A DNA stretch of 64,000 bases. It comes from Reclinomonas americana ATCC 50394 (lineage: Eukaryota). Where the stretch lies: assembly GCA_048213135.1 (NCBI GenBank), contig PS015058.1:19934-83933 (forward strand). Direction: 5' to 3'. The notes beneath the pieces are model-generated. The model ran no database searches. It was given only the letters and a program-made list of their open reading frames with translations, and had not been told where the DNA came from. Shown here one piece after another: positions 5,610-35,100 of the stretch (the stretch's first letter is position 1; each line of letters opens with the position of its first letter). The position numbers and the translations under genes were made by a program.

Positions 5610-7163
5610 ATGGAAGACGACTTTGCATCGGCGGCTGCCAATGGAGACAGCAAGTTTGTGTCGTTGTCGGTGCCGGATGATCCGTTGAGCGACGACGAGG
5701 GCGGTGGAAGCAGCTCGCGAGGGCGGGCGCGACGCGGCAGTGATGATGGGGAAGGCGATGGCGATGATGTGCCTGACAGTGCCGATGTCGACTATGCGCA
5801 TGGTGGCGCTGGTGGCTTTGGTGGTGCGTGTGTGCGTGTGACCAAAGTGTGCCATTGCGCGCGAAATTTGACCATTCAACGTCTGCGTTGTGTAGGATCG
5901 ACACATCTCGACTTGTCAGAGTTCATTGTGCACCCGCACTGCGTGTTGTGGATCAAGGAGCAGGTCATCAATGCGGGCTTTGGGCCCGAGTCGGCGTGGG
6001 ACTTGATGGCCACGGATGTCATTCGGCAGTTTCTCAGCAATCCGACCTCGCGCGTCTTTTTCGTGTCATGGCGTGAGGTTGGCGTGCATGGAGCGGCGGG
6101 GACGCCGGGCTCGAGCATGATGAATTCGCCGCATATGACGGCCAGTGCGCATGGCCCCAGCGCCAATGGAACGGCGCCGGTGTCCATGTCGGGAAGCGCA
6201 CGACGAGCGGGACGTTGAGTCTTTGATTAGTCTCTCCCTTCCCCTATCATCGCTGACTTGCCATGGTGGACAGGTGGCGCTGGCCAACTGACGCCGACAA
6301 AGCGCGGTGGTGCCGAGCATGGAGCGACACTGGGTGCGCCGAGTGCCGCCGACGCGAGTGGCTCCGACGAGCACCGCATGATGGTGTCGTTCTCGTTCCG
6401 CCCGCCGCACGGACAGCCGTCGGAGATCATGTGGTTTGTGCGCTCGACCACCGACGTGATTGACGACACCAACGTGTTGCAAGTCGTCAAGTTTGGCGTC
6501 ATTCGCGGCGGCAACGTGCTGGAGAGCCTCCTGCGCATGATGGAGCGCTTGTATGTGCCCATGCTGCTGCAGAACGACTCGTGGCCCGACAGTTGCGGCC
6601 GCTGTCCACTCCCTCCTTCTTCTTCTGCGGAGGAAGAGTGCTGCTGGTCGCTGACGATGATGGTGTTGTAGGCATCAAGAAGGACTTTGCGTCGCACGTG
6701 CATCGCTTTATGGCCAGCTTGACAGAGACGGTGCACCAGCTGAAGGGTTCCACCGTGCTGTACGTGCCGGTGGATCGTATCGACGACCCCGATGGAGCGT
6801 CCCGCGACAAGGATTTGCTGCAGACTCTCGAGTGTTTCGTCTCGCATCGTTGTCGTCACTCTTTCTTCCCCCTTCCTCCCCACTGAGTGATTGAAAAAAT
6901 TGTGTCGCAGCGGCCCTGATTGGCTGGACGCGCCAGATCAAGGAGGTGGTCAACGAAAAAGACAGCTTCGACAGCTCCGACAGCGGCCCGCTGGCCGAGA
7001 TTGAGTTCTGGCGGTCACGCACTGAGGATTTGACGGGCATTTTGGTGCAACTGAACCGCCAAGACGTGCTCACCATTCAGGCGGTGCTGGAGAAGGCCAA
7101 CTCGCCGTACCTCAAGACATTCCAGGACCAGCGCAAGATTGTCAAGGTTTGTGCGGTGGTGTT

Positions 7164-7204
<41 letters not shown>

Positions 7205-10200
7205 CTTGGCTGACAATGCGAGTTGTCGTGGTGCAGCGCGGGTACCTGGAGGCGGAGGAGAATCTCAAGTTCTTGTCGACACTCAAGGCACCGTGCGAGG
7301 TGCTGTCCAAGGCGCGGCCACGTGAGATCCCGCAGATCTTGCCCGGAATCCTGTACCGCGTGCGCCTCATCTGGGAAATGTCGAAGCATTTCAACAACAG
7401 CGATCGCATGGTCGGCCTGCTGCGCAAGATCAGCAACGAAATCATCAACCGTTGCTGCGCGCACATTTCGCTGGAGGACATTTTCGACGGCGACGTGCTG
7501 GAGAGCCTGCGCATCCTGCACGAGTGCATCGAGGCCGGCAACGCATGGGAACACATTTACACCCAGACGGCACAGCGCATTCAGGTGGCGGCCACCCGTC
7601 TCGATGCGCACAAGCCAGCGGATTCCAGCGGCCCCTCATTCGCGGAGCATGTGTGGGACTTTGACCCGAGCACCATTTTTGCCGAGGTCAACGCCTTCAA
7701 GCAGCGCTGCCAGGATCTGATCGAGGTGTGCGAGGGTCAGATGCAGTTTGCCAGCAAGGCCGTGGTGGAGGGCACTGAGGTTTGTTCCACTGCTTGTCTT
7801 GCGGCAGCCATGTGAGTGACTGACAACTGGTCCGCGCAGACCGGTTTCCCGGTGTTTGGTGGCGCTCGTGGTCGCGAAATCTCCAAGAGTCTGCTCGACA
7901 TCCGCGCCAGCTTCCAGAAGAACATTCAGGTGCTGCAGGGCCTCGACTACGACATTCTCGATGTGAAGTCCACTCTCTGGCACGACGACTACTCGGTGTT
8001 CAAGAAGGGCCTGAAGGAGCTCGAAGTCATGCTGCAGAATGTCATTCAGATGGCGTTCCAGTCGATGCGCTCGGTCAACGAAGGCGTGGAGCTGCTGGAG
8101 GCCTTTACGCTGCTGGCAAAGCGCGAGAACATCAAGCGCACCGTGCATCGCATGACCTCTGACGTGTTCCAGCTGTTCTTGCTGGTTCGTGGCGCTCGTC
8201 TGGCGTGTTGTCTGTCGCTGTCGAGTCGTACTCACCTCTTTCCCTCCCACATTTTGCAGGACATGGCGGTGGTGAAGAAAGAGTTCGATGTGCACAAGCG
8301 CAACCCGCCGCTGTTGCCTTTCTACCCGGTGTTCTCCGGAGCCGCCATGTGGGCGCAGAGTCTGCTGGACCGCGTGGCGCACCAATGGGTACGCATCCTA
8401 TCATTTATTCCATGTGATGCTTCCCCTCCATCTAAGAAATCTCACTCCCTTTCTGTATTACAGGCGGCGCTGGAGGAGGCGCACCACTACCTCGAGGCGA
8501 CGCCAGAGGCTGAGGAGGCCGCTCGTGAGTTCCACTCACTGCGCCAGTCCATCGATGTGCACATCAAATCTGTTGCGTGCCCACCACCTCGCGTCGGCAC
8601 TCCCTCTGGTGCATGCACTCATCTCCTTTCCCCCTTCGTTGTAGATTGTGTACAAGGACTGGTTGGAGTCGATCGAGGACGACCTCGACTCGAAGCTGGA
8701 GAAGAGCCTCATGATCCGTGTCGGTGGTGCCGACGGTCTGCTCGAGTGCAACTTTGACCAGTCGCTGCTCCGCCTCTTCCAGGAGGCGCGCTTCTGGGGC
8801 AAGCTGCACATGAGTCTGCCGCTGCACGCCATGGACATTGTCGGTCGCGAGGAGAGCTTCCGCCTGCTGCGTGACAATGTGATGCTGCTGGTCCGCGACT
8901 ACAACGACATTCTCTTGGCGCTGACGCCAGAGGAGCGACGACTGTTCGCCGAGCGTGTCAGCACGCTGAACAAGAAGATCAACACCGGCATCACCAAGCT
9001 CACGTGGACAAGCCCGGTCATCATGAACTTTGTGCGCGAGTGCCGCGCCTCGTGCCGTGTGGTCTACAAGGTATATGCACGCGTGCACACGCACTTATGC
9101 GTGTTCTGCGAGTGTCTTATCTCATGTTGTTTTCTTCGTGCTCGACAGACTCTTATGGAGTTCAAGGAGTCCAACGTGCACATTGACCGCATCTGCCGTA
9201 CCGTGTTTGGCGACACGCTGCTCATCAAGATCGAGCCGAAGACTGTGTATGCCAAGGCGCAGTTCATCGAGATGCAGGAGAAGTGCCGCCAGCAGGTCAT
9301 GATGACGCTGCGACGCGCGCATCAGGAGGTGCTCGGCTACATGGAGAAGGTGATTTTCGCGAATGGCGTGTCGCGCTATTCTGTTGCGTGCTGCTGACTC
9401 ACCGTGTGCTTCGCAGTCGTACGAGTACTTCCGCTACGACAAGGACCCGCGCATCCACAAGGAGTGGGAAAAGTACGTGGAGAAGATCGACCAAAAGGTG
9501 AGCGATGAAGATGGTGTCCCCTTCAGGCACATGCGCTTATCCCGGTGACTCTGCAGGTCGAGGACGCGCTCCGCGTGTCCGTCAAGCGCTCGCTCTCGAC
9601 GCTCTTCCGCGCCATCATGGGTGACAAGAACACCGAGGTGCAGCCGCTCTTCCTGGTGTACGTGGTGCTTGAGCGTGGTTCGGTCGAGTTCCAGCCGCGC
9701 CTCGAGGAGCTCATTGAGATTGTGTCGCGCATCTCTGGAGTTTCGTTCAACACGCATAAAGTCGATAGGCATGCCACTGTTGCTGACTCGCTCTTGCTGT
9801 GCACAGGATGCTGTGGCTCTGCTGAAGAACGTGAAGCGCGTCAGCGATCAGCTGCAGCTGCGTCGCCTGTTGGAGGAGCACGAGCAGCGTGTGGCCGAGG
9901 GTCTGGAAGATGGTCCACCGGTGCGTGTGAGAATTGCAAAGTTGTTGCTTCTGTTGTGTTGACTGACTGCGCGCCACAGAAATGGAACGTCGACAACGTG
10001 TCAGACCGACCGTCGTTCCACAAGATCATTTCGGTGGAAGAAGGTGATTTCGTGTGCAGTCACGTGCCTCTCCTCTCTCTTTATCGCTCATTTTCCCCTC
10101 CCAGACACCGTCAACACACTGGTGTCGATTCGCGGTGGCATGGAGGGCACGAAGAGCGATGTGGCGGTTTGTAAAACCTTCGCTTCTCGCTCTCTTTGCA

Positions 10201-13200
10201 CACACAATCTCACACGCTGCTCGGCGCAGATGTACACGGACGACTGGAAGACAAACTACAGCCGCGTGTGGGTGGATGTGCAGTCGACCTACATTCGTCG
10301 TTTTGGTCAGTCACTCATCGCGCCCTTGTATTCCTTACATGCACGCCCCCACCTCACCGATCACTTGCGCAGCCAACAAGTCGCCCTCGCTGGACGTCTT
10401 CCGCGAGAAGATCGACACGTATCGCAACTACCAGTTCGAAGTCACCAACCGTCAGGTGCGTCGTGTCACTGCTCCGATGTTGGCAGACTGTTTTCTCTCT
10501 TTTCCCTAATCAATCCACTTGCCTGCCCGCAGACAACGACCAACATTGCCTTCCTCAAGGTCGACTGCTCGCTCCTCAAGCAGAGCATTATCTCGCTGTG
10601 CTCGTCGTGGCAGAGCGAGTTCTTCAACCTGCTCAACAAGATGGCACACGACGACATGGAGGAGCTGTACTCGTACTTCCGCAACCACAAGAATCGCTTG
10701 CGCCAGAAGCCCGAGGATCTCGATGCGCTGCACAATGCCTTCGAGCTCGTCGACGTGCGTTCTTTGTGTCGTGCGTGTGTCTGTGTGTGTTGTCAGTGCG
10801 CTCATGGCGTGATGTGACGGGGGTGGCAGAACTTGGAGAGTGGACTGGAGCTCAAGCACAAGGCACACGAGGACATCAATGCCAAGTACAAGACGCTGTA
10901 CGACTACGACGTGCCTGTTCGCGAGGAAGAAAAGGTCCGCCTTCCGTGTCTATCTTGCAAGTCTTTCTTCCCTTCTATTGACAAGTGTGTGTGTGCATTT
11001 TGTAGGCATCGTTGGCTGGCCTGCATGCAGCCTTTGCCGACTTTGAGCAGGCCATTCAGGAGGCACGATGGATGCTGCAGGAGCAGCAGGAGGTGCTGCG
11101 CAAGCGCCTGCTCTCCGACCTCGACTCGTACGGCCGCGGTGTCACCGAGTTCGCCGAGGAGTTCTCTCGTGCGGCGCCGTACCAGCTGGTGCTCGGACCG
11201 GGCGAGTCGCGCACCGTGGTCATTGAGCGCGCGTTTGACGAGATCTCGCGTATGAAGCGCGAGTTGGAGCAGCGTGAGGTTTGTCTGCACAACCTCTCGT
11301 TGCGACTTTCTGGTTCTCTGCTCACCCGTTGTTCTGTGCGCAGATGTACATGAAGCAGCTGGAGGTCGGTTTGACCATGTTCAAGATCGAGCAGCCGCCA
11401 TCACGCGAGATTCAAGAAGTGCAAAAGGTGCGACTGTTGGGCGTGGCGTTGTGATTTTTGTGTTGTTGGTGTGACTTACAACTGCTGCAGGAAATTGGTT
11501 TCCTCGAGCGCATGTGGGGACTGGCTCGCCGATGGGACACCTCGTGGAACGAGTGGAAGGACGAGCGATTTGTACAAATGGATGTCGACAAGCTGGAGGA
11601 GTCTGTCGACAAGGTGCGTGCTCGGGAGCACAATAGCCGATTGCCTCAGAAACTGACCTCTCCCCTCTCTCTCGACACACACAGTTCCGCAAGGATCTCG
11701 CGGTCATTCAGCGTGACATGAAGGGCCGCACGTGGGGAGTGGCGCGCACCATCTCGGACGACATTACTAATTTCAAGTCGACGCTGCCGCTCATCCAGGA
11801 TCTCAAGAATCCGGGCATGCGCGATCGTCACTGGCGCAAGGTCATGGACAAGGTCAACACCACGTTCAACCCGTACAGCGACGATTTCCGCCTGGAGACC
11901 ATTGCCTCGCTCGGTCTCTACAACCACATCGAGTTCATCTCCAATCTGTCGGCCAGTGCCACAAAGGAGTACAAGATCGAGCGTGGCCTGCAAGACATTG
12001 AGGAGGCCTGGGCCAAGACCGGCATTGACGTGCTGCCACATCGTGAGGAGTACCTCAAGCTGTCCGTGTCGGAGGAAGTGTTTAGCGCGCTGGAAGAGCA
12101 CCAGGTGGGTGACTGCGCTATGTATACTTTTGTGTGGAATGGCGCAGATGACTGACTGCGTTTCATGTGTGTGTGCGCGTGTGTGCAGGCCACGCTCGGT
12201 GCGATGAAGATTTCGCGTTTTGTGGCCATTTTCGAGAAGAAGGTCGAGGAGTGGGAGCGCAATCTGTCCAAGATTGCCGAGTTCATCGAGGCATCGTTGC
12301 AAGTGCAGCGTCAATGGATTCACCTCGAGTCCATCTTTGGCGCGTCGCAAGACATGAAGAAGCATCTGCCGGGCGAGTCCACCATGTTCGAGTATGTCAA
12401 CGACTCGTGGGGCAAGCTGACGCGCCGGCTGCAGCAGGGTTTGTCTGCGCCCGATTGCGTGCTTACAATTGTCAACAATCTAACATGCTGCGTCAGACCC
12501 GAACGCCTTGCGCGCCACCGAGATTCCCGACGTGATCAGCACGCTCGGGGAGATGGACGAGACACTGACGCGCATCCAAAAGTCACTCGACCAGTACCTG
12601 GAGAAGAAGCGCCAGGCGTTCCCGCGTTTTTACTTCTTGTCGTCTGAGGATTTGCTTGAAATTCTCGGCCAGTCGCGTGGTACGTTGATGATCGTGAGTT
12701 CGACACGCAGCCCTTTAACGAGGTCTCATGCGCCCTCCGCAATCACGCACAGACCCGAATGCCGTGCAGAAGCACTTGAAGAAGTGCTTCGACGCCATTC
12801 ACCGCCTGCGCATTGAGGACCGTGATGGTGGACGCGGTGTCATGGCGCTCGAGATGATTAGTCCGGAGGGCGAAAAGATGGACCTGTACCCGAACCCCGT
12901 GCAGCTCGATCACAAGCCGGTCGAGGACTGGATGAAGGAGGTGCGCGTTTGTGGGGAGACTCCTCTCTCGCGTGTATGTGGAATCTCACCACACTGCTGC
13001 ACAGATCGAAGCACGCATGCGCACGTCGGTCAAGCAGAATCTGTTCTTGGCCTACAAGGACGCTCGTGCGCTGCGTCGCAGCGAGGACTACGAGAAGTGG
13101 GTGAAGAAGCACCACGGCCAGACGCTCATCACGTCGTCGCAGCTGGTGTGGACCACGTGGGTGGAGAAGGCGCTGGAGGAGTGCGTGGCGAAGGAGTCGA

Positions 13201-16200
13201 TGAAGCCGCTGCACGATCTGCGCAAGCGCTACGTTGTGTCTCCCTCTCGCTTGATCTTGCACCACTTTTTTTGCGAGGCACTCGCTCATCATCACCCGCA
13301 CACACGCACACACACAGATGGGCAAGTTGCATTGGTACGCCAACATGGTCCGTGGTCGCCTGTCGCCGCTGGATCGTAACAAGCTGGTGGCGCTCATCAC
13401 CATCGAGGTGCACGCCCGTGATGTGATTGCCGACTTGCCGCGCAAGGAGGTCAAGGGTGTCAACGACTTTGAGTGGCTCAAGCAACTGCGCTTCAACTGG
13501 TTGCGTCGCACATGCACACACACCTGCATCTATGCCTGCTTTTTGCTATTTAAGACTCACGTTGTCTGTGTAGGATTGAGGCCGAGCCGTCTGCTGGCGG
13601 ATCGGAGAACAAGCCCATGCGTTCCAACCCCGACGATCGATGCCTGTGCAGCCAGACCACAGCCACTCTCGACTACGATCTGGAGTACCTCGGCGCCAGT
13701 GGCCGTCTCGTCATCACCGAGCTCACCGATCGATGCTACATGACGCTGACCAGCGCGCTGCAGGTGCTGTTAGCCCCCCACATGTCAACGCACAGACTGC
13801 CGATTAGTGCTGACCTCGTTTTCTCCTCCTTCTCCTCCTCTCTACACCACAGTTGAAGCGCGGTGGCAACCCCCAGGGACCCGCCGGTACTGGCAAGACA
13901 GAGACTGTGAAGGATCTGGGCAAGGCCATTGCCAAGTACGTCATTGTGTTCAACTGCTCGGATCAGCTGGACATTTTGGCCCTCGGTCGCATGTTCTCTG
14001 GACTGGCACAAACCGGCGCCTGGAGCTGCTTCGACGAGTTCAACCGTATCGAAATCGAAGTGCTCTCCGTCGTCGCCCAACAGATTTACACCATTCTGTC
14101 GGCCATCACTGCCGGCGCCACCAAGTTCATCTTCGAGGGCAACGAGATTGCACTGAACCCGGCTTGCGGTATCTTTGTGACGATGAACCCGGTTCGTGAG
14201 AGACGCCGCCACTGGTTGTTGCCTCATCGTTCTGACGTCTTGTGACTTTTGTGCAGGGTTACGCCGGTCGTACGGAGCTGCCGGACAACCTGAAGGCACT
14301 GCTGCGCCCCATCTCCATGATGGTGCCCGACTCGGCTGTCATTGCCGAAATCATGCTCCAGTCCGAAGGCTTCTTGGAGTCCAAGGTGCGTCACCACTCT
14401 CTCACCTCCCCTTTTTTTCCCCCTCGTGTCTCACCTTTCCGGGAATTTGTGCAGGCGCTGGCCAAGAAGATCACGACGCTGTATGCACTCATGGTGCAGC
14501 AGCTGTCAAAGCAGGATCACTACGATTTCGGCCTGCGTGCCATCAAGTCTGTGCTGACCATGGCCGGCTCTCTGAAGCGTGCGCGCCCCGACGAGAAGGA
14601 GCAGGTGCTGCTGCTGCAGGCTTGCCGCGACATGAACGCGCCCAAGTTCGTGTCAGAAGACGTGCCGCTCTTTGGCGCCATGCTCGGTGACTTGTTCCCG
14701 GGAGTCGATCTGCCGCAGCTGGATCGAGGCGACCTGGAGCGCGCCATTTCCGACGAGATGACGCGCCGCCAGTTGGATGTGTCCCGCCACATTATCGACA
14801 AGTGCCTGCAGTTGCACGAGACCAAGAACACGCGCCACGGCAACATGCTTGTCGGTCTCACTGGCTCCGGCAAGAGTACGTGCTGGGATCTGCTGGCCAC
14901 TGCCAAGAGCAACCTGAAGAAGGAGGGCGTGCCCGGTTTCGAGGAGGTGCGCACCATTATCATCAACCCAAAGTGCTGCTGCTTGTACGGCGAGTACAAC
15001 CCCGTCACGACGGACATGACGGACGGTGTGCTGTCCAAGCACATGCGTGAGGCGTGCGATGATGAGCGCCCCGACGAGGTCAGTGGCACACTTATCTGCT
15101 CCATCCCCCTCCCCTGCATTCATCTCAATCCATCTTGTGTACAAAAACAGAAATGGCTGGTGCTCGACGGTCCCGTGGACACGCTGTGGATTGAGTCGAT
15201 GAACACGGTGCTGGACGACAACAAGCTGCTGACGCTGACCAGTGGCGAGCGCATTCAGATGACACCGCAAGTGTCGCTGCTGTTCGAGGTCAATGATTTG
15301 GCCGTTGCCTCACCGGCCACGGTGTCGCGCTGCGGTATGGTCTACTTTGACGTGGCGGATCTCGGCTGGTGGCCGGCGGTCAACGCCTGGCTGCGCCGCC
15401 GCGAGTACAACGACCTCAACCCGGACGCCATTCGCGAGCTCCTCACCAATCTGTTTGACAAGTTTGTGACCAAGGCGCTGCTGTGCCGTCGCCGTGACTG
15501 CAAGGAGCCGGTGCCCATTACGGACTTTAATGCCGTGGCCTCGCTGTGCAACCTGTTTGATGCCCTTTGTGACGCGGATCATGGTGTGGTGGCCTCGGTG
15601 AGTGACTTGCTGTTGCATTGTGAGCCAGCCATTATACTGTTTGTTGACGTGCGGTGTTTTGCACTCCGACAGGATGACCGCCACAAGGACTTGGTGGAAA
15701 TGTACTTTGTGTTTGCGCTCATCTGGACGCTCGGCGCGTCGGTCGACGAGGCCGGTCGCAAGGAGTTCGACTTGCTGGTGCGCGAAATCGATTCGCAGTT
15801 CCCGTCACGCGACACCATCTACGAGTACTACGTCGACCACGTCAACAAGGCGTGGAAGCCGTGGGAGGAGAAGGCACGTACTTTTTGCTGTCACCTGGTA
15901 CGCGCCGTCGCACAGTGACTGATTGTGCATGTCGTGTGCCCCGCAGATTCCGGCCAACTGGACGCCCAAGATCAACGAGCCGTTCTACAAGCTGTTCGTG
16001 CCCACTGTCGACACAGTGCGAAACACGTACGTTCTCAGCACGCTCATCAAGGCGCGCAAGAACGTGCTGTTGGTTGGCGCCTCCGGTACTGGCAAGACTG
16101 CGTTGGTGCAGGCGCATCTCAACCACTTGGACGACGCTCGCCACTCCAAACTCATGCTCAATCTGTCGGCGCGCACCACGTTGCGTTGCTGACAGTCACT

Positions 16201-19200
16201 CACTCACGTGCGAGGCGTGTTGCCTGATGCTCACACTTGCACAGGTACGAGCGTCTGCAGGAGTCGATTGAGATGCGTGTCGACCGTCGCACTCAAAAGG
16301 TGTACGGCCCGCCGGCTGGTGAGTGCGACTTGCAAGATTCAGAGTAATTTTGTGGTTGTCGCTTACCATTTGTTGTGCATCTGTGCAGGCATGCGATTGA
16401 TTACCTTCCTGGATGACTTGAACATGCCGCAAAAGGACACCTTCGGCTCGCAGCCGCCGCTGGAGCTCGTGCGTCAGTGGATGCAGTACGAGTTCTGGTA
16501 CGATCTGCACAAGCAGTCGCAGCGCTACATCAAGGACATGCAGCTGATTGCGGCAATGGCGCCGCCAGGTTTGTGTCGATTGATCTGTCCGCCTTTTTCT
16601 CTTCTTTCGACGGTCGCACTCATGTCGAACTCGTTGCGCACCACAGGCGGCGGTCGCACGGTCATCTCGGGCCGTCTGCAGAGCAAGTTCAACGTGATCA
16701 ACGTGACCTTCCCGTCCAAGACGCAAGTGCAGCACATTTTCAGCACCATGCTCAAGGCCAAGCTCATGGATTTCACCGACGACGTGCGCAGCCTCGTCGA
16801 TCCGCTCACTCAGGTGCGTGATAGCTCACGCGAGCGTGAGGAGAAAGGTCGATCGATGCTCACCATTGTTTGCAGAGCACTGTCGACATTTACAACGCCG
16901 TCGTCAACGGTCTGCTGCCAACGCCCACCAAGTCGCACTACGTCTTCAACATGCGCGATCTGTCCAAGGTGTTCCAGGGCATCATGTCGACCACCAAGGA
17001 GGCTGTCGACTCGAAGCAGTCCATGGTCAAGCTGTGGATTCACGGTGCGAGAGCCCTGTGTCATCTATTTCTCCTTCGCCGAGGTTGATCATTTGACAAT
17101 GCCTTGGTGTTTCCGATTGCAGAAAACATGCGCGTGTTCTCCGACCGCCTCATCTCCGACCAAGATCGCGAGTTCTTCCGTCAGCTCGTCGACGACAAGT
17201 TGTTCTCGTACTTTGAGACCACGTGGTCGTCGACCTGCTCGGATGGCCCACCGATCTTCGGCAACTTTATGGACGGCACTCCGTTGCGTTTTCTTCCTTA
17301 TTTCCACTCCCTGCATCTTGTGCGTCCTCACCTTTAATAATCGCACAGCATGTCGGAGAAGCCGGCCTACAAGGAGGTCCCGTCGCTGCGCGAGTTGCAC
17401 ATGCGCCTGGGTGACGCACTCGACATGTACAACATGACGCCGAAGGTGCGCCCGATGGACCTGGTGCTGTTCAAGGACGCCATGGAGCACGTGTGCCGCA
17501 TCTGGCGCGTGCTCTCGCAGGAGCGCGGCAATGTGATGCTTGTCGGCGTCGGCGGTAGCGGTCGCCAGAGTTTGTCGCGTCTGGCCGCCTCGCTCGGCGA
17601 GTACGGTGTGCGCCAAGTGGAAATCACCAAGAGCTTCGGCTTCAACGACTGGCGCAAGTTCATCATGGAGCTGTACGTCGAGGCCGGTGGCCCCGACGCC
17701 AAGCATCTCGTGTTCCTCTTTACGGACACGCAGATTGTGCTGGACAGCTTCATGGAAGGTGAGGCGACGCGACGCGACGCGACGCGGCAGGGAATACGTG
17801 TAGCACAGAATGACTCACTCCGTATCTGCAGACATCAACAACATTCTCAGCAGTGGCGAAGTGCCGAACCTGTTCCCCAACGAGGATCTCACTCGCATTC
17901 GCGAGGAGATGCGTCCGATCGCCCGCCAACTCGATCGCTCGCAGACCAACGACGCCCTGTACGGCCTGTTCATTGAGCGTGTCCGTGCTCACTTGCACGT
18001 GGTGCTGGTGCGTACTCTCTTCGTTGACGTGTGTCTGTGAAGAGCAACTCACCATGTATGTGTGTATAGTGCATGAGTCCGGTCGGCGACGGCTTCCGTA
18101 ACTACATTCGCATGTTCCCGTCGCTGGTCAGCTGCACGACCATCGATTGGTTCAGTGAGTGGCCGGAGGACGCGCTGCTGGAGGTGGCGGCCAAGTTCTT
18201 GGAGGATGTGCCGGATGTGAGCGACGAGGAGCGTCGCAACGTCGGCGAGATTGTCGTCAACATGCACGTGTCGGTGGCGCAGATGAACAAGCGCATGCTG
18301 AACGAGCTGCGCCGCTACAACTACGTGACGCCGACCAACTTCCTGGAGCTCGTCAAGGGCTACAAGGGCCTGCTGCAAGAGAAGCGACGCGAGCTCGGTG
18401 CCCTGGCGCACAAGCTGCGCAACGGTCTGCAGAAGCTGGAAGAGGGTCGCCAGCAAGTCGAGACCATGTCGAAGGAGCTCGAAATCAAGCAGGTGGACGT
18501 CGAGCGGAACCAGGAGGAATGCGATGCGCTGCTTAAGGTCATTGTGTCGGAGAAGGCCGACGCCGACAAGCAAGAGGCGGAAGTTGCGTCTCGACAGCCG
18601 GAGTATTTTTGTGTGTCACGTTAACATCAGTGCTGACGCCATGATGTTGTTACGCACAGGTCACCCGCGAGAGTGCACGCATTGAGAAGGAGAAAGAGGA
18701 GGCGTACTCAATCATGGCAGAGGCGCAGACGGAGCTGGACAAGGCGCTGCCGTTGCTGGAGGATGCAGAAAAGGCGCTGGGTGGCCTCAACCGTAGTGAT
18801 TTGGTCGAAGTGCGCTCGTACACCAAGGTGCCACTCGAGGTGGAGCTGGTGCTCAAGGCTGTGATGGTGTTGCTCGGCAAGCCGGCGACAGTCGACGAGG
18901 CCAAGCGTCGTATGAACGACCCCAGTTGCGTTCAACGCCACCCACTACCCGATGGTGTCACAGTGCACTAATTCCTGCCCCTCTTTTCGCGTGTGTCGAC
19001 AGACTTTATCTCGCAGCTGGTGACGTACCCGAAGGACGACATGAGTCTGACGGTGCTGGGCAAGATCGGCAAGTACACAGTGATGGATGAGTTCCAGCCG
19101 GCGGTGAGTCTACCACCTCGTCTCCCTCCCTTTTATTCTTCTGAGAACTCACTTTGCTGTCGTGGCGCGCAGAACGTCGGTCGCGTGTCGCGCGCCGCTC

Positions 19201-22200
19201 AATCCATGTGCTTGTGGGTGCGTGCCATGGAGTCGTACGGACACGTGGCCAAGACCGTCATGCCGAAGCGTCTGCGTGTCAAGCAAGCGCTCGAGGAGGT
19301 GGACATTAAGGAGAAGAGCTTGGCGGAAGCTCGTTGCGTCATCCAGCGCCACTTCGCAAAAGCGTGTTTGGAACACCAAGTCTCATTGCTTTCCTCCCCA
19401 CACAGAGGCTCGCTTGGCTGAAATCAAGGCCAAAGTCGCGGAGTTGAAGAAGCGTCACGAGGAGTCGGCGGCGCTGCGCGATCGCCTGCGTGCCGAAGCC
19501 GAGATGCTGTCCACGAAGCTGCAGCGTGCCCAGGCGGTGAGTCGTGTGTGCCTCCTGTCTTGAGTGTGGGCTTCATTTGCTGACTCGGCGTGCTGCAGCT
19601 GGTCGACGGTCTGTCGGGTGAGCGTGTGCGTTGGGAGACCAATGCGGAGATCTACGAAGACCAGTTGAGTCGCCTGGTGGGCGACGTGCTGCTTGCTGCG
19701 GCCTTCTTGTCGTACGCTGGTCCCTTCACCTCCGAGTACCGAAGCGATTTGGTGCATGGCTGGAAGGAGCGCGTGTCGGATCTGCGCTTGCCAGTGTCGG
19801 AAGACTTTGAGTTCACCAAGTTCCTGGCGAAGCCGACCGACGTGCGCGACTGGAACATCAAGGGTCTGCCGACGGACAACTTTAGCACGGAGAATGGCGT
19901 GCTGGTCACGCGCAGCTCGCGCTGGCCGCTCATGATTGACCCGCAAGGCCAAGCCAACAAGTGGATCAAGAAGCTCGACCCGAAGCTGGCCGTCACCGAT
20001 CTCAAGCAGCGCGATTTCCTGCGCAAGCTGGAGAACGCCATTGGTTTCGGCACAACGGTGCTCATTGAGGATGTGGGTGAGGAGATGGACCCGACACTGG
20101 AGCCCATTTTGGCCAAGGCCATTGTCAAGATCGGCAACCGCTGGGTGCTGCGTGTCGGCGACAAGGATATTGACTGGAACCCCGATTTCCGTCTGTACAT
20201 GACGACCAAGCTGCCGAATCCGCACTACGCCCCCGAGGTGTGCACCAAGACCACCATTGTCAACTTTGCTGTCAAGGAGCAAGGTCTCGAAGACCAGCTG
20301 CTCGGCATTGTCGTGCGCAAGGAGCGCATCGACCTCGAGCGCAGCAAGAACGAGCTGGTGGTGCAAATGGCCCAGGCCAAGGTACTTTTATTGTGTTTGT
20401 GCATGTGCGCTCCCATTCCGTGTTCCTCATCGTTGTCGCTTCTGGTAGAAACAAATGGAGCAACTCGAGGACGACATTCTGCGTCTGCTGGAGGGCTCTG
20501 GTTCGTTCTTGGACGACGAGCAGCTGGTGTCGACGCTGCAGAATGCCAAGGTCACCAGTCAGCGCATCAAGGAGCAGCTGGCGGTCAACGCCGAGACGGA
20601 GAAGAAGATCGATGTGGCGCGTAACGAGTACCGCCCGTGCGCCAAGCGCGCCTCCATCCTCTTCTTTGTCCTCAACGACCTCAGCCGTGTGGACCCGATG
20701 TACCAGGTGCGCGCAGGGAGAGAGAATGCAGAGAGTGGAGATTATTCGATGTGTGCTGACACCGCTGGCGCAGTTCGCTCTCGACTCGTACATTGCGCTG
20801 TTCGAGATGAACATTGACAACTGCCCGGCGCCGGAGCAGGACGACGTCAAGACGCGCATTCTCCACCTCAACTCGTACCACACCCTGGTCGTGTACAACA
20901 CCACGTGCCGCGGTCTCTTTGAGAAGCACAAGCTGTTGTTCGCGTTCCAGATCTGCGCCAAGATTCTGCAGGGCGAAAGCCAGTTGAATCTGGTGGACTA
21001 CCAGTTCTTCCTGCGCGGTGGCCAGGTGCTGGACAAGGAGACGCAGCCGCCGAACCCGTGCCCGATGTGGATGAACGAGAGCGTATGGGACAACATCTTC
21101 GAGCTCGACAAGCTGTCTTCGTACCGCGGAATTGCCGAGAGGTGCGTGTGTGACATGCACAACACACACACCCCCTGCACACTGTCTCACACGAAATTGA
21201 CACGATCGCAGCTTTGAGCAACTGAGCCGCGATTGGCACGAGTGGTACCTGCACCCGGAGCCGGAGACGATTCCGCTGAAGGGCGAGTGGGAGGCCAAGC
21301 TGCGCGACAAGCTGCAGCGCATGGTGCTGGTCCGCTGCCTGCGCCCCGATCGTGTGACATTCATGGTCCGCGATTTCATCGAGTCCAAGCTCGGTCCTGA
21401 CGTTGCGTCAGTTGTGACAGCAAGGTGATGCGATATGGTGGTACTCACTCTTGTGTGTTTGACGTCGCGCAGTACATCAAGACGCCGGTGGCCGAACTCA
21501 GCATTGTGTACCGCGACTCAAGCCCCGTCACACCCTTCGTGTTTGTGCTGTCGCCTGGTGTCGACCCGACCTCCAAGCTGGGAGAGCTGGCTCGTCAGCT
21601 GAACATCAAATACGTGAGTCGCAACAAGAAGGCGGAGGAGGGCTCTTCATTATCGAGGCTCACCATTTTCTGTTTTCCTCCTTCTCCAGGAAAACCTTGC
21701 GCTTGGTCGTGGCCAGGCCAAGCCTGCGCTCGACATGCTGAATCGCGGCATGCGCGAGGGCAACTGGGTATTCTTCGCCAACTGCCATCTGATGATTAGC
21801 TGGATGCCGGAGCTGGAGAAGATCATCAACGAGCTGCCGCAGCGCGACCTGCACCCGAACTTCCGCCTGTGGCTCTCCAGTGTGCCGCACCCGAAGTTCC
21901 CGATTGGCATTCTGCAGACGGCCATCAAGATCACCACCGAGCCGCCGAAGGGCATCAAGAACAACCTCACCCGTCTGTACAACCTGCTCAGCGAGGAGAA
22001 GTTCGGTCGCTGCTCCAAGCTGAGTCCGTACAAGCGTCTGCTCTTCTCGCTCTGCTTCTACCACTCGATTCTGCTGGAGCGCCGCAAGTTCGGCACCCTC
22101 GGTCTCAACATCCCGTACGACTTCAACGACTCAGACTTCGAGGTCAGCGAGGACATTCTCGCCCTGTACCTCGACTCGTACGAGGAGATCCCGTGGAAGA

Positions 22201-23834
22201 GTCTGCGGTACCTGGTGTCCGAGGCCTCGTATGGTGGCCGTGTCACCGACGACCGCGATCGCCGTCTCCTGAATGTGTACATTGATCAGGTGTGTGTGTG
22301 TGTGTGTGTGTATGGCAAAGTACCTCTCTGCATGGCTGCCAATTAGTGTTTCTCACTCTATGAGTTTTCCCCCTCCTGCAGTTCTTCCACGTCGAAGTCA
22401 CTGAGACCGACAAGTACCGCCTGTCGGCGCTGTCGTCGTACTATGTCCCGCCCGACGGTCCGCTGACGGCCTACAAGGAGTTCATCAAGAGCGAGCTGCC
22501 GGAGCAGGACAAGCCCGAGGCCTTTGGTCAGCACGCCAATGCCGACATTTCAGCGCAGATCGAGGACTCGGTGGCCATTCTCGACACGCTGTTGTCGTTG
22601 CAGCCACGCGCCTCTGCAGCCAGTTTCGTCGTCGCATGCGCGCGCACACACGCGCACGCAGGTTGTGAGTTCGTTTGAACTCACCGTTGCTCGTGAACGC
22701 AGACACTGGTGGTGGACCGGTGGTGTCACGCGAGGACATGGTCATGGACCTGGCCACGGACTTGCAGGGCAAGATTCCAGAGCAGGTCGACCTGGAGCTC
22801 ACCAAGGACGCGCTGCCGGACGACGGCTCCGCCCTCAACCCAGTGCTGCTGCAAGAGCTGGCCCGCTACAACATTCTGCTGCGCAACGTGAAGCGCGATC
22901 TGGCGGAGCTCAAGAAGGGCATCAAGGGTCTTGTGGTCATGAGCCCGGAGCTCGACGAGGTCTTCAACTTCATGTACGACGGCAAGGTGCCGCCGGCGTG
23001 GCTGAAGCAGTATCCGTCGGTGAAGCCGCTTGCGGCCTGGATCCGCGACCTCAACCAGCGCATGGACCAGCTGCGCAAGTGGGCCAACAGGTTGGTGCAA
23101 CTGGTGCGACGTGGTTGGAGACAAGGATTGTGTTGCTGAAATGATTTTTCTGTGCAGCTCCACTCCGCCCAAGATCTTCTGGCTCGGCGGCTTTACGTTC
23201 CCGACGGTTTGTTTGCATGTGTTGTCATAACTACCTTGCCAGTGGCGCTCATTGATTGATGTTGTTTGTGCAGGGCTTCTTGACTGCGCTGCAGCAAAAC
23301 TATGCTCGTCAGCACAACGTGTCTGTCGATATGCTGGGCTGGGAGTTCCCGATTGTGCCGTACGAGGAGGCCGACATTTTGCACCCGCCACGCGACGGTG
23401 CCTACATGAAGGGCATGTTCCTGGAGGGCGGCGGCTGGGACTGGGATGAGTCCGAGTTGTGCGAACCCAAGCCGATGGAGCTGTTGTCGAACATGCCGGT
23501 ACGTGGCGGAGGACGGTCACAGCATTTTTTCGCCGATTTTTAGGTGTTGCTCACTTGCACTGCGCCACACGCACAGATTATTCACTTCAAGCCTGTCGAT
23601 TTGCGCAAGCGCAAGGCTCCTGGCCTCTTCGAGTGCCCGTTGTACATGTATCCAGTGCGCACCGGCACTCGGTGAGTTGTCGCCTGCTTCTTCCCCCCGT
23701 CTTTCCGGCTTGTTGCTGACATTATGTATCACAGTGAGCGCCCGTCGTTCATGCTCTACGTCGACCTGAAGAGCGGTGATGTGGAACCGGAGCATTGGGT
23801 CAAGCGCGGCACTGCGCTGCTGCTCTCGACGTAA
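5610..23834 (+). CDS. DNAH2: axonemal dynein heavy chain, DNAH2-like (inner arm I1/f beta type), about 59 introns
   Basis: AAA1 [14 protein letters not shown] and [15 protein letters not shown]2 [11 protein letters not shown]3 [11 protein letters not shown]4 GVGGSGRQS, stalk, [18 protein letters not shown]-terminal [10 protein letters not shown]-terminus [13 protein letters not shown]. Exons rejoin in frame through GT-AG introns and one GC-AG intron. The subfamily call is from recalled motifs. Confidence 0.93.
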
Positions 23835-23924: not shown

Positions 23925-26900
23925 TCAGAAAGCTCCTCGGATGCGTGCCTCGACCGCCAAGATGCGCTCCAGAACTCCACGCTGGAACTTTTGGTGAATC
24001 AGGCGCGCGAATTCGGCCAGTGCCTCGGCCGTCTCCTGTGTGCTGGCCAGCAACTGCACGACGAGGTGAGGACACGCGAGGGAGGACGGAAGGAAAGAGC
24101 ACGGTACACACCTGGGCGTGCATGTGCGGCTGCGATCGGCGCACATCAAAGCGCTTGCCGAGCGACTCCATGAGCCGGTCAATAACCACGGGCAGAATGC
24201 GGCGCACGGATTCGTCCAATTGTTGGAATCGCTCGTAGCACTGGCGCACTTGAGCCGGATGCAGGGGCACCAGTTCGAGTGATTGCACCATCTACAAAGG
24301 GAAAGGGAAAGGGAAAGGGAGAGGGAGAGGGAGAGGGATAGAGGGATAGAGGGTCAGCTGTGATTAAAGGCGGTGGTGGTGGCGGCGACGACAAAGCAAA
24401 CCTGAATCGAGTCATCCTGGTGTCCGGCATCGTACGCATCAATGTACTCCATCAGCTGCAAGATGTAATGCAGCGTCTGCAGCAGGCTGGACGACGGCGC
24501 TTCGGAGCTATCCGAGAGCGACGACTGCCGGTAGTTGGCATAAAATTGCAGGCCCAAGTCCTGGAGCAACAGATTGAGGAACAACTGACAAGAGGGCGAC
24601 TGAGCATTGCCAGCTCGACACACCTTCAGCTCCACTCGCCGCTCGCCATTAATGGCCACACGTCCGAGTTCGCGGTTGAGAATAACAAGCGCCTCATTCG
24701 GTTTCTGTGCACAGACAGACAAGTGAGTATGACAATCTAGGCGCCACACTCACGAGTGCCGCCACATACCTTGCACACGTTGTACAGGTACACAGCATCC
24801 TCGATGAGACCCTTGCGCTCCGCCTGCGCCGCCGCATTGGCGGCCACCAGGCGCACCTCGTCCGAGTTGTACACCTCATGCAAGCATCCACGCTGGCGAC
24901 AAGACGTTGGTTCAACATACGGCAACGGTCTGCGGGCGGACACACACAACACTCACCTCGCGGCTTCCCTTGCCGAAAAACACTTCCCAGTTGCGGCTCT
25001 TGCGCACGACCTTGCTGACTGCCAAAATGCGTGCGCGCTTGGCAGGACTGCACATGCCACAAACAGTCAGCAACCAACCTTGCGCACAAGCACTCCTCGA
25101 CTATGCCACGCAACTCGATGCTGTCCAAGGCCTCGTCCGGGCTGTACTCGTCGGCCGACGGTTGCACCAGAGAAACGTACGTGACTGCCGGACGGGGCGC
25201 CGTCTGCACAAACGACTTGACGTACTCCTTGAGCAGAGCGTTGAAGTTGAAAAAGTCGGTCTCCGCCTCGCGACCAACTGCGAAGCCATCGTCTAGTCAG
25301 CCGGAAAGCGCAGCACATAGTTTCTACCAAAAGGAGCGACGCAACAAATGGGATTTTGTGTGGACGACGGCAGATTCAGCGCGCCGTAGTACACCAAGGC
25401 AATTGCCATGTGCAAGCCCTCCAGCTTGAAATCGCCGAGCGTGCGCGTGCACAAGTATTCGAGACCCTGGTGGACAGAGAGAGTGAGGAAGAGAGAGTGC
25501 AGACTTACAACAAGACACGCACACACATACCCGTTCGAATTGCTGCGTCAAAAAGAGCAGCTTGGCAAACAGGAGAGGGTTCTCGGGGAACGCCTCTCGT
25601 GGATTCTGTGACGAGACGAGCGCCTGCACGTCTTCCAGGCGACGAGACGACGCCGATGACGAGGACGAGGCGGCAGTCTCCGGCAGAATGCGCACCATTT
25701 TCAACTGTGAATGACAGGAGGGTTGTATGTGAGTACTTCTACCGACACCAGGCGATTCTGGATCCATCAAAACCAACCTCCCACCACACCCAGTCCTCGA
25801 TGAACTGCGTGACGTCCTGCGGCAACCCCGACGGCAGCCGGCACATGAGAGCGTAGATGGCCTTCAGGTAGGGATCGTCAGAGTCAGACAAGCTGTCCAT
25901 TCGATCCTTTGCCTGTCTCCAGGTATTTTCGTTGGCCCTACGATGTTGTCAACGTCAGAACATTACCCAGAATGCGATGGGGAAGCTGGCGACCTCTTCC
26001 CACGCACCCCGAGTGATCGGAACCCAGCAGCTTTGTCATGAACGACGCCAGTTCCGGATCGCGCTTTGACATCAAGCGGCGCGCCTTGTCGGTGAGACCG
26101 CATCGAAGGCAAAAGTAAATCAGCGCAAACGGATACTCGACGCGCTCGCCCTCGCGCTTGCGTACGGTCTCGCGCTACACACACGCACGCAAATGATAAG
26201 TGTGAGGTGAATCAGCGAGACACGCACAAACACACACATCCACAAAAAAACACACCCTGACATGGTCGGATATCCGCTTCTCCTCGCGCATCACATTGAG
26301 GTAGCCACGCAGATTGGAGATTGGCTTTTGCGTGCCACCACGTTGCGCCAGCAGCGGGTTATTCGTCGCCGTCGTGCGGCAGTGCTTCAACATGCTGTGC
26401 GTGGGAGAGAAAGAGAAGCATGAGTCCAAGCATGCAGAACATCGACACAGAGAGGCCCACGCAACTCGTCCTCCAGGTACTTGAGCGCGCCAGTCAAGTA
26501 ATGCTGTCTCCTCTCGTTGCCGGTGAATCGTGCCATCTCCTCGCTTGGTCGGTGCGTGTTGGCCAACGAGTCAACATCGAGCAACGACCCGAGCAACTCC
26601 CACAACTCGGACGGTTGAGTGCCCTGTTCACTCACACGCGCCACCGTTAGCAACACTAAAGAAATGAGTGTCTGACAAAGAGCGACCCCACCTGCGGTCG
26701 GCTGGACACAGCCTCGGAGCACTTGCGAAAGTTGGCAATGAGCGGGTACGGCTCCTCCTGGAACACAGCAACCGCGTACTCGTGCACGACCTCGTAAAAC
26801 GCTTGCATGCGCGGGTGAATAAACGCGCCGCCACGCATGCCCGTCGGGTGCGCCGGCTGCACCGCACCCGTAGTCATGTACTGGAATCCACCACCAGCGC

Positions 26901-28348: not shown

Positions 28349-31973
<3,625 letters not shown>

Positions 31974-32144
31974 GATGTGTATGCGCGTGTGTGTGTGTGT
32001 GCTCGCTACTTCTCGCTGGAAACAATATGTGTGTGTACTTAGACGAAAAATGAAACGAGTGGGATGCGGTGAACCAACCAGCAAAGAGAGCGCGACTGCA
32101 TTGCATTGCCACACACTATCTCTCTGTCTCTCCTTTTCGTCTTA

Positions 32145-35100
32145 TTATTGTGATGAATTCGTGAGATCCACCACCTCGTCCTCATCGTCGTCGTCATACT
32201 CTGCGTGACAGTGAGAACCGAGGGGGAAAAAAGAGTTCGTGGCCCTTTGTAGCACCCCTCACCTTGTGGAGTGCCGTCGTCGATCTGTAGCAGACACTCG
32301 AGCACATTAGTATGAAGCAACAACGAAGAAGCAATGTAGTCACGGTCACGCACAAAGTCACGCATGTCACTGTCCATCTCCTCGTCGTCCTCATCCTCTC
32401 CTCCTTCCTCCCCCTCCCCGTCCACCCCGTCGCCGTCAATCTCTGTAATGTCGGCGTCCAGGTCTTCTCCTTCCTCGTCCTCCTCCTCCTCTCCCATTTC
32501 CCCTTCCATTTCCTCATCCCCAGTGGCCTCCTCCGCTTCCTCCCCTTGCCCGTCATCGCCCTTGCCGGAGCGGACGTACTTGTCTGCAGTCGTCGATTGG
32601 TGAGTTGTCAGAACCAGGGGACCTTTGCCCCACTCCCTCACTCACCCATGATACCGCGCATCATGCTGTTGAACTTGGCGCGTCGTGTGCCCTTGAGTGG
32701 CGAGGCCAGCGACTCCGCGTCCGACTGACTGCTGGCGTGCATCCGGCGCCAGTACACGGAACGCGCGGCCAGCGTGTCGGCCTCCTCCTGCGACGGGTCG
32801 GCAGCGACAAACTCACGCATCGACGACGACAAACTGCCGTCTTCGTCCTCGGCATCGTCGACGAGGTCCTCTGAGCGCGCTTCTTGCGAGTCGAGACTGC
32901 AATTGCAGGAAGAGGTGAGATCCATTTGCCGAAAAAAGAACCGAGTATAGACGACAGGCCAGTCGCAACTCTGCTTCATCCTCCAAAAAGGCGGTGGAGG
33001 CAGTTCGCTTCACGCCTACACGTCGCTGCTGGCGCTTGATCTTGCGACCGACCAGCTTGCGACCAGTGCGAGCTCGCGCACCGGCAAAATCATCATCGTC
33101 TTCGTCACCGTCGTCGTCACCGCCGTCCTCACCAGCAAAATCGCCCTCATCGTTCTCCTCGGCATCTAGATCAATCACCTGCGCAGCGGCCGTGGGTGGA
33201 CGCCTCTTCTTGATAATCCTCCTGCGTTGCTGCACTTTGCCGCCGCTCGGCGACGTTGGCGGCGACTGGAACGACAGCGCGGATGGCGACGTCTTGGTGG
33301 CCGAGGCAGCCGCAGCGGTGGTGGTGGCGGCGGCAACAGAGACCGCATGAGCCGCAGCAGCAGCGGTCGGCAGCAGCAGTTGTGGCGACATGGTCACTTT
33401 GTTGTTGGACGACGCACCCGACGAACTCGACGACGACAGGCGATAGTGCGACGGCAGGCCAACTGGCGGCGACATGAGTGTGCTGCTGCCGCTTGCTGCT
33501 GCAGCGGAGCGAGTCGGCGTCGTCAGAGGCGACGTCGGCACCGATGCCCCCTTGCTCTTCGGCTGCAGCGCGGTGAGCAGGCGACAAAAAAGACCACAAC
33601 AAAAACAGAGAGCAAACTAACCGCCGTCATCGATGCCGCGGGCGACGCGGGTGCCACAGTGGCGACTGGCGGAACGCGAAGAGGCTGCCGTGCAGACTGA
33701 CTGCCGGCGGCCTCGGCCGACGATGGCATGGTGCCCGACGACGAGCCCGACGAGTGCATATCGAGATCGGAACCGGGTTGTGAGCCCAGCAGCGTTCGTG
33801 CGAGAACCTGTGCCGCCCGCGCCACTGACGACGAGGACGACGATGACGGGATCGAGGCCAATGTCTGCGCGCAGAGATGTAAGAGTCGCTGAAGAGAAAA
33901 CCATCGAGAGGCAAAGATGCGAACCTCAAAATCGGCCTCGAGACGACGCCGAGCCTGCATGGGCGGCTTGGTCACCACAGCACACGTATCGGAGAGGCGA
34001 CTGGCTGACCCGCGCCGCCCCGATGACGATGCCGACAGAATGCTACCGTGCTCCTCGTGGACTGTCAAGAAAAACAAATACAGCGGTGAGCACGGGCAAC
34101 ACAACGTGTGCACACTCCATGAACACACGCACCACCATGACGAACTGGCGACGCGTCAGACAGATGTAGTGCCAGATGATCGCTCAGTTCCTCCTGATGC
34201 TCAAATAGGCCGCCACATACGTTGCACTGGAAGCCAGTTGGTTCAAACGGCAGACTGCTGTTATGCAAGCTGCTGCTGCCTGTCTCCCGCACCCACGTGT
34301 TGAGTCCCCACTCAATTCAATTTTTCAGTGAATGACTGCACGCACCTGACTTGCGTGGACTTGTTCCCTGATGCGCCAGCTGTACCTCGCGAAACTGGGG
34401 CGACAACGGCAAGTTCTGCGGACCTCTCTCTTCGTCATCATCTTCGTCGTCGTCCACCACATACACCAGCTGATCCGGCGGCACGGCGGCCAATCGAATC
34501 GGCGGCGCCGGCTGCGGTGGTGTGGGCGGCGTCGGCGGTACCACCGCGCCTGCAGGCTGTGCCACTGCCTGCTCAATCCACTCCATGTCGGCATCCATGG
34601 CCTCCAGTAGCAGGAGCTGTGTTGGATGGTGCGCGGTAAGCGAGGAGACTATGGGGTGCGACACTGCTGGCTGTTGAACACAGTCTCGCCTTTTCAGCCT
34701 CGGAGATGGGCAACACATCGGGGCGCTTCGGCACAGTGCCTGACGCGACGTTTTCTTCCTCCTCCTCCTCCTCGTCGTCGTCCACCACCTGCCACGCCGG
34801 CTGCTGCGGTGAATCTGCGTCGCTGTCGTATTCATTCGAGGCCGGCGGTGATTCCTCACGCGGAGGAAGCTGTGCTGTCACGGTCAGCGTCACAATCACT
34901 GACTGCGATGCAGACGTGACGATGAACACACCGTCTGCGACACTCTCGCCGATTCGCAAGGCACCGAGAGTGGCGCCGTGCGACGAAATGGAGTGGCACC
35001 CGACGATGGTGGCGCCTACGCAACACAGTCAGGCAGGGCAAGCAAAGGAATGGGAGCATTCGCGGCTTGACTACTGACCGAGCTCGACATGATCGCGTCC

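Follow-up and report, generated by a model that had tools for sequence, protein, structure and literature searches.

The dynein gene and its 5' splice sites

The window analyzed here is a stretch of 64,000 nucleotides (nt) of Reclinomonas americana ATCC 50394 DNA (contig PS015058.1), and all coordinates refer to it. At 5610-23834 on the + strand it holds an axonemal dynein heavy chain gene of the DNAH2/inner-arm I1 beta-like type, with 60 exons and 59 introns, encoding 4675 amino acid residues. A protein search with a 560-residue open frame of this gene returned DNAH2 and inner-arm dynein f relatives with identities of 51% or less, and the Pfam domains AAA_6, AAA_9 and MT (the dynein stalk) were recognized on single exons. 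The 5' splice sites (donors) of this gene fall into two classes, and the class of a donor is coupled to the last base of the exon that precedes it (position -1).

The donor classes were defined from intron bases alone. Donors carrying G at +5, here called ordinary, numbered 40 and were preceded by G in 38 cases and by C in two (10755 and 21614); these two belong to the strongest ordinary types, GTGCGT and GTGAGT. Donors of the form GTTnnG without G at +5, here called shifted, numbered 14 (24% of the 59) and were preceded by A five times, by C six times, by T twice and by G once (13500). The five donors with neither signature were all preceded by G, always as part of AAG or CAG. Seen from the exon side, 13 of the 15 exons that do not end in G were followed by a shifted donor, as was only 1 of the 44 that do. 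Fisher's test on these counts (shifted donors after non-G and G, 13 and 1; other donors after non-G and G, 2 and 43) gave p = 3.5e-10, indicating that the coupling of donor class to the -1 base in this gene is real and far beyond chance. The original prediction, made from the sequence by manual count, had given about 59 introns, 15 non-G exon ends, 13 of them shifted with the exceptions at 10755 and 21614, and a single shifted donor after about 44 G-ended exons; the rebuilt gene model reproduced these figures exactly. If the donor of intron 2 were placed at 6073 (C/GTGAGG, giving a 201-nt intron and likewise following C) instead of 6214, one cell of the table would change and the association would still be highly significant.

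The shifted donors of the dynein gene, followed by the two ordinary donors after a non-G base, are given below. All are on the + strand, the slash marks the predicted cut, and ranks and margins refer to the signal-free junction tests described in the next section.

6214-6220, +, intron 2 (6214-6273), C/GTTGAGT: the sole in-phase GT before a stop codon; not spanned by homologues
6592-6598, +, intron 3, A/GTTGCGG: rank 1 with both homologue sets, margin 11.0
6834-6840, +, intron 4, T/GTTTCGT: rank 1 with both homologue sets, margin 15.6
8572-8578, +, intron 9, T/GTTGCGT: in a poorly conserved region that homology does not resolve; the alternative at 8557 also follows T
9740-9746, +, intron 13, A/GTTTCGT: not spanned in the eight-orthologue test; gap-free at the junction against P0241
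13233-13239, +, intron 28, C/GTTGTGT: rank 1 with both homologue sets, margin 6.9
13500-13506, +, intron 29, G/GTTGCGT: follows G; rank 2-3 behind GC donors without consensus, losing by 0.9
16180-16186, +, intron 36, C/GTTGCGT: rank 1 with the earlier homologue set
17283-17289, +, intron 41, C/GTTGCGT: rank 1 with the earlier set, second with the eight orthologues, where a GC 3 nt downstream was ahead by 4.0
18583-18589, +, intron 44, A/GTTGCGT: rank 1 with both homologue sets
18925-18931, +, intron 45, A/GTTGCGT: rank 1 with both homologue sets, margin 12.6
19333-19339, +, intron 47, C/GTTGCGT: rank 1 with the earlier homologue set
21402-21408, +, intron 52, C/GTTGCGT: rank 1 with both homologue sets
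22623-22629, +, intron 55, A/GTTTCGT: rank 1 with both homologue sets
10755-10760, +, intron 19, C/GTGCGT, ordinary donor after non-G: rank 1 with both homologue sets
21614-21619, +, intron 53, C/GTGAGT, ordinary donor after non-G: rank 1 with both homologue sets

At the single G exception, 13500, the last two exon bases are TG, from a conserved Trp codon. Among the donors that belong to neither class, those at 9350-9359 and 10044-10052 (+) share an odd form, AAG/GTGATTT(T)CG, in which neither +5 nor +6 is G. The three further donors without G at +5, at 9071, 13764 and 20382, likewise follow AAG or CAG.

Gene model and placement of the junctions

The exon-intron structure of the dynein gene was determined by dynamic programming, in which a three-periodic Markov coding model was combined with a codon bonus from high-scoring segment pairs (HSPs) with homologues, an acceptor score and a bonus for donor sites. 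This donor-site bonus gave GTnnG and GTTnnG the same weight and ignored the exon bases, including the last. Early models built without a donor term, or with GC donors freely allowed, were of poor quality and were dropped. Seven junctions were then corrected, four by homologue alignment (donors moved at 12680, 12941, 15874 and 19537) and three by judgement on the basis of length and composition (intron 1, 5824-5895; intron 2, 6214-6273; intron 11, 9350-9416). In the final model 1 of the 59 introns is of the GC-AG type:

15874-15946, +, 73-nt intron AAG/GCACGT...CAG: favoured by alignment over the nearby GT at 15898 (60.4 against 46.1), with a margin of 6.6 when the eight orthologues were used

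The 4675-residue model aligned with the 4529-residue dynein P0241 of Diacronema lutheri in a single HSP (residues 248-4674, 49.7% identity), and at most junctions this alignment showed 0-1 gaps within 12 residues. The junctions were also assessed without any splice signal, by taking all GT/GC..AG pairs that leave the frame open and scoring each only by the global alignment of the joined peptide to homologues. With an earlier homologue set, the shifted donor came out on top at 10 of the 12 junctions of its class that were spanned. A second set consisted of eight full-length orthologues, namely P0241 and seven intron-free metagenome open reading frames; here the donor of the model ranked first at 37 of the 43 spanned junctions (ordinary 27/30, shifted 7/10, other 3/3), the remaining 16 junctions being unspanned. 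Homology left the junctions of introns 2 (6214), 9 (8572), 13 (9740) and 29 (13500) unsettled. For a comparison of orthologous introns no close relatives were found: the best metagenome loci, which have almost no introns, reached 63% identity in the exon that is conserved most strongly, and they served as orthologue proteins only.

These data bear on whether the shifted donors could be an artefact of the gene model, the true sites being GC donors 3 nt downstream (NGTT/GCGT) or otherwise misplaced. The T/GCGT alternative is always in frame at GTTGCGT sites and scored slightly higher at 17283 (margin -4.0), and the gene does contain one true GC-AG intron (15874). However, GC is absent from +4/+5 in 5 of the 14 shifted donors (three GTTTCGT, one GTTGAGT and one GTTGTGT), and the orthologue alignment favoured GT by 5 to 12.6 at 6592, 18583, 18925 and 21402, as it did with the earlier homologue set at 16180 and 19333 (six junctions in total). 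In addition, the GCGTnn alternatives lack G at +5, unlike the real GC donor AAG/GCACGT. An artefact of this kind is therefore considered very improbable.

Two further features of the gene were observed. The exon after intron 29 (13574-13624, +) encodes about 16 residues that are not in the haptophyte orthologue, and no in-frame GT-AG alternative removes them while sparing conserved residues. Inside intron 5 lies a (CT)n microsatellite of about 38 nt (7165-7202, +); similar stretches of CT or GT are found in several further introns and confound simple motif counts.

Base composition at the exon end and the proposed binding register

All 14 shifted dynein donors have GT at +1/+2 and, by definition, T at +3 and G at +6; T at +7 was present in 13 of them, and T at +6 in 32 of the 40 ordinary donors. 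The bases between are biased as well, +4 being G in 11 of 14 and +5 being C in 12 of 14. Upstream of the cut, the -1 bases of the shifted donors (A 5, C 6, T 2, G 1) resembled the -2 bases of the ordinary donors (A 22, C 10, T 6, G 2; order A > C > T >> G). The log2-likelihood of the shifted -1 bases was -26.0 under the ordinary -2 model, -34.2 under a codon-position background and -69.3 under the ordinary -1 model, so that the -2 model was better than the background by 8 bits and better than the -1 model by 43 bits. G was seen once at this position against 4.66 times expected from codon positions (P = 0.025), and A was the third codon base in 2 of the 5 phase-0 cases, compared with 4.9% A at third positions in the dynein gene (P = 0.022). 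What is observed directly is that there are two donor classes, that class is coupled to the -1 base and that the shifted -1 matches the ordinary -2.

A displacement of the binding register by one base fits this composition, which gives it partial support and argues against a simple bulge. In a bulged-U register, G+1 would pair with C8 of U1 small nuclear RNA (snRNA), one U (+2 or +3) would bulge out, G+6/T+7 would reach C4/A3, and the coupling to non-G exon ends would arise indirectly, as a compensation. According to passages of PMC4856993, human registers bulged at +2 or +3 have been established by experiment. A bulge, however, leaves the -1 base facing C9 of U1, which predicts G, as found in 38 of the 40 ordinary donors; it was found in 1 of the 14 shifted donors, and this model of the -1 base was 43 bits worse than the -2 model. 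A bulge would also weaken the intron side and so could not offset the missing G at -1; exons with non-G ends should then favour GTnnGT, and only 2 of the 15 do. We regard the bulge as distinctly unlikely, in agreement with the original prediction, which had judged a shifted register the better fit. That prediction had also supposed that the shift frees the last exon base from splicing constraint. The data indicate that the constraint is exchanged, the -1 base taking over the preferences of -2; it is not lifted, since G is avoided and A favoured.

Introns in phase 1 or 2 were more frequent in the shifted class (9 of 14) than in the ordinary class (11 of 40; p = 0.024). In these phases the last exon base is set by the amino acid, as in Tyr TAC/, Asp GAC/, Thr AC/N and Pro CC/N, and non-G ends are commoner there.

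In other respects the shifted introns were like the ordinary ones, with mean lengths of 73 and 70 nt, a GC content of 0.53 in both, and similar CTNAY branch-like motifs and CAG/TAG acceptors. An origin from introners or other repeats was rejected, the matches from intron to intron being of low complexity only. Since the two kinds of intron are alike and share only low-complexity sequence, one spliceosome and no repeat family are indicated. U12-type introns have the donor RTATCCTT and a TCCTTAAC-like branch site. The possibility that the shifted donors are of this type was rejected as well: none has ATCC at +3 to +6, and their CTNAY branch-like motifs and acceptors are those of ordinary introns.

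Shifted donors in the rest of the window

Genes other than dynein were represented by automated models only, which are noisy. Introns from these models were filtered by length (45-130 nt), by a coding score of at least 5 for each flanking exon and by location in nine regions judged to be real genes. The filtered introns showed the same association (shifted donors after non-G and G, 11 and 2; other donors, 15 and 34; p = 9e-4). The automated models contained 25 shifted donors outside dynein, two of which were dropped for being antisense to better-supported genes; the remaining 23 had A at -1 in 11 cases, T in 8, C in 2 and G in 2. Together with dynein this gives 37 predicted shifted donors in the window, 34 of them after a non-G base, with A the commonest (16). 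The figures originally proposed for the window were 40, 38 and 17. The pattern, mostly non-G with A commonest, was retained; our counts of 37, 34 and 16, coming largely from automated models, check those figures only approximately.

The heptamer GTTGCGT occurs 34 times in the window against 12.4 +/- 3.6 expected (2.7-fold), a number reached by 0 of 100 shuffles. The base before it was A in 10 cases, C in 8, T in 13 and G in 3, and 24 of the 34 had an intron-like 3' end within 45-130 nt, 22 of these 24 following a non-G base. Two other approaches were rejected: chained prediction over the whole window merged genes and was discarded, and in a count, free of gene models, of the -1 base before GTnnGT or GTTnnGT followed by an intron-like 3' end, (GT)n repeats dominated the result and left it unusable.

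Shifted donors outside dynein include the following, all from automated models.

929-935, +, G/GTTGCGT, after G: 74-nt intron, found with and without the donor bonus
1577-1583, +, T/GTTGCGT: 65-nt intron
2650-2656, -, T/GTTGCGT
2924-2930, -, A/GTTGCGT: short flanking exons, low confidence
25108-25114, -, A/GTTGCGT
25339-25345, -, T/GTTGCGT
26459-26465, -, A/GTTGCGT
32963-32969, -, A/GTTGCGA: DEAD-helicase gene
37754-37760, -, T/GTTGCGT: DEAD-helicase gene
42721-42727, -, A/GTTGTGT
42997-43003, -, A/GTTGCGT
43256-43262, -, A/GTTGAGT
52623-52629, +, A/GTTGCGT
58264-58270, +, A/GTTGCGT
60855-60861, +, T/GTTGTGC
61097-61103, +, A/GTTGCGC

A proposed model for shifted donors and their possible pairing with U1

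We propose that there may be one 7-base donor signal, G-(G/T)-T-N-N-G-T, which can take two positions relative to the cut. At ordinary donors the first G of the signal would be the last exon base, with the cut after it (G/GTNNGT), and at shifted donors it would be intron G+1, with the cut before it (H/GTTNNGT). The most likely reader of the signal would be the 5' end of U1 snRNA, bound one base deeper into the intron at shifted donors, and later spliceosome steps would presumably still cut at GT; both points are inferred. The shifted form would serve exons that cannot or do not end in G, ends of a kind that is commoner in phase 1/2 introns. On compositional grounds, reading of the shifted donors by U1 in a +1 shifted register is the best-supported explanation, and we give it a probability of roughly 0.55.

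Duplex energies were calculated with ViennaRNA in fixed registers, using the standard U1 5' end AUACUUACCUG as it appears in passages of PMC4856993; the organism's own U1 may differ from it. Ordinary dynein donors had a mean of -7.04 kcal/mol in the canonical register. The 14 shifted donors had means of -0.19 kcal/mol in the canonical register, -0.55 in the shifted register, -0.34 with a bulge at +2 and -0.37 with a bulge at +3, and the nearness of the last two values to that of the shifted register speaks for the bulge discussed above. Pairing in the shifted register is weak on account of +4 and +5, where G and C predominate and find no partner in U1 positions 6 and 5. The original prediction had counted on an energetic advantage for the shifted register. 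With the standard U1 every register gave about 0 kcal/mol and deletion of T+3 helped pairing, so that by its own criterion the energy result counts against the register shift, unless the U1 of this organism differs.

Several observations weigh against the register shift. With the standard U1 the shifted register gains very little over the others (-0.55 kcal/mol, compared with -0.19 to -0.37), and at 9 of the 14 shifted sites it formed no stable duplex. Removal of T+3 in silico gave -1.66 kcal/mol in the canonical register, a stronger pairing than that of the real sites, and nearest-neighbour energetics therefore leave the preference for the extra T unexplained. Beyond the GT the two classes do not align, shifted +8 being C in 9 of 14 and ordinary +7 being G in 20 of 40. 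All cut positions are predicted, having been placed by the reading frame and by alignment to orthologues, and at three of the ten spanned shifted junctions (8572, 13500 and 17283) the predicted donor did not rank first in the eight-orthologue alignment. Shifted donors preceded by G do exist, at 13500 in dynein and at 929 and, doubtfully, 62591 elsewhere. Finally, when the other genes were modelled without the donor bonus, the association (shifted donors after non-G and G, 6 and 2; other donors, 18 and 34) reached only p = 0.05.

Given these energies, either mismatch-tolerant binding of the U1 small nuclear ribonucleoprotein suffices at shifted donors, or the U1 of this organism differs, or another component reads the signal. 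The second option could take the form of a second U1 snRNA variant dedicated to GUU donors, for example with A in place of C at position 8 (C8A), which would pair with them free of mismatches in the shifted register. The standard U1 gives almost no predicted stability, though shifted donors account for 24% of those in an essential gene; when a C8A 5' end was assumed, they paired with it at -3.6 kcal/mol, in the shifted register only, compared with -1.5 for ordinary donors, and such a variant would account for the invariant T+3 and for the -2-like profile at -1. Yet it is purely hypothetical: an Rfam scan of the 64-kb window gave 0 matches at the gathering score and no U1 gene in the window, and the bias to G (11/14) and C (12/14) at +4/+5 looks more like compensation for a mismatch than like a perfect match. 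We consider a variant U1 unlikely. Equally doubtful is a broader proposal, in which there would be two parallel 5' splice-site codes, the GUU type being read one base shifted by a U1 variant reserved for it or by a U1 whose 5' end is modified or altered; introns would then be allowed after any exon base, and the donor class would be nearly determined by the last exon nucleotide throughout the genome.

The third option is that the reader is not U1, the sites being U1-weak and defined chiefly afterwards, through U5 loop 1, Prp8 or pairing of the U6 ACAGAGA box to the GT downstream; contacts with U5 or with protein would then underlie the exon-end rule. The predicted U1 pairing is negligible in every register, and passages of PMC8283771 argue for a role of U5/U6 in the dependency between -1G and +5G in human. 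On the other hand, AAG or CAG before all five donors without G+5 and the near-invariant G-1 of ordinary donors form the pattern expected of pairing with U1 C9/U10, and a different reader would also have to tolerate a one-base change in spacing between the GU and the GT paired with U6. In the same sense, the AAG/CAG before the five donors without G at +5 or +6 is the exon/intron compensation expected of a normal U1 5' end, a concept treated in passages of PMC8283771. A reader other than U1 is likewise considered unlikely.

Other features of the window

Eight runs of N, 2699 bases in total (the longer ones at 29973-30811, 43525-44286 and 46630-46984), are situated within or next to low-complexity, AT-rich DNA (GC 0.32-0.47 at 30-32 kb and 42-48 kb) and look like assembly gaps in repeats. 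Further genes and open frames are as follows.

31071-31973, +: 3' part of a proteasome Rpn11/PSMD14 gene (Pfam RPN11_C), adjoining an N gap
31696-39422, -: large gene with about 29 predicted introns and a DEAD/ResIII helicase exon
61164-62516, both strands: 1.3 kb covered by overlapping long open frames, each with a high coding score (231 and 266 bits)

The best named relatives of the Rpn11 exon were 66% identical (Naegleria, Acrasis) and the best unnamed 70%, with no close relative among the proteins searched. The long acidic low-complexity C-terminal half of the helicase gene is an automated prediction only. The peptides of the overlapping frames are repetitive, Leu/Pro/His-rich on the + strand and Gln/Arg/Glu-rich on the - strand, and the flanking introns fit the + strand.

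Significance and comparison with known systems

If the rule held genome-wide, a U1/5' splice-site register deemed a rare human oddity would be a routine, selected solution in this organism, and would offer hundreds or thousands of natural cases for the uncoupling of U1 binding from the choice of the cleavage site. It would also be one route to keeping introns after exon ends that coding bars from G, 9 of the 14 shifted donors being in phase 1 or 2. Gene finders trained on just one donor matrix would overlook or misplace roughly one donor in four in this organism. The near-zero pairing predicted with the standard U1 raises the question of what reads GUUGCGU.

A literature search on the shifted U1 register and on GTT-donor motifs, in which subscription journals were thinly covered, found no lineage-wide GTT donor class described. 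The mechanism nearest to the one proposed here is the +1 shifted U1 register (Roca and Krainer 2009, Nat Struct Mol Biol 16:176), which passages of PMC4856993 describe and PMC9311317 cites; in human it is a rare class, all validated noncanonical registers together making up about 1.5% of 201,541 human 5' splice sites (PMC4856993). According to these passages, the human register and the one proposed here have in common that the pairs are slid by one position, that intron G+1 replaces exon G-1 and that cleavage stays at GU, and the human test oligonucleotide ACA/GUCAAGUAUA (PMC4856993) likewise has an A-ended exon. They differ in frequency, the class seen here making up 14 of the 59 dynein donors and numbering about 37 in the 64-kb window, and in that T at +3 is needed here and the class is almost fully predicted by the -1 base. 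The duplex predicted here with the standard U1 end is also far weaker than that of the human example, because +4/+5 are GC here and not AA.

Registers with a bulged nucleotide or an asymmetric loop (Roca et al. 2012; Tan et al. 2016, PMC4856993, in the same passages) resemble the shifted donors in that one more nucleotide separates the GU from the G downstream, while the downstream G/U still reach U1 C4/A3. Those registers keep -1 opposite C9, whereas G at -1 is avoided here (1 of 14). Finally, as in the classical -1G/+5G compensation covered by passages of PMC8283771, the exon and intron sides of the donor trade off against each other, as seen in the AAG or CAG ahead of all five donors that lack G+5 and in the strong types, GTGCGT and GTGAGT, of the two ordinary donors after a non-G base. 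In that system a single register is kept, whereas here the missing exon G appears to be replaced by a move of the whole signal one base into the intron.

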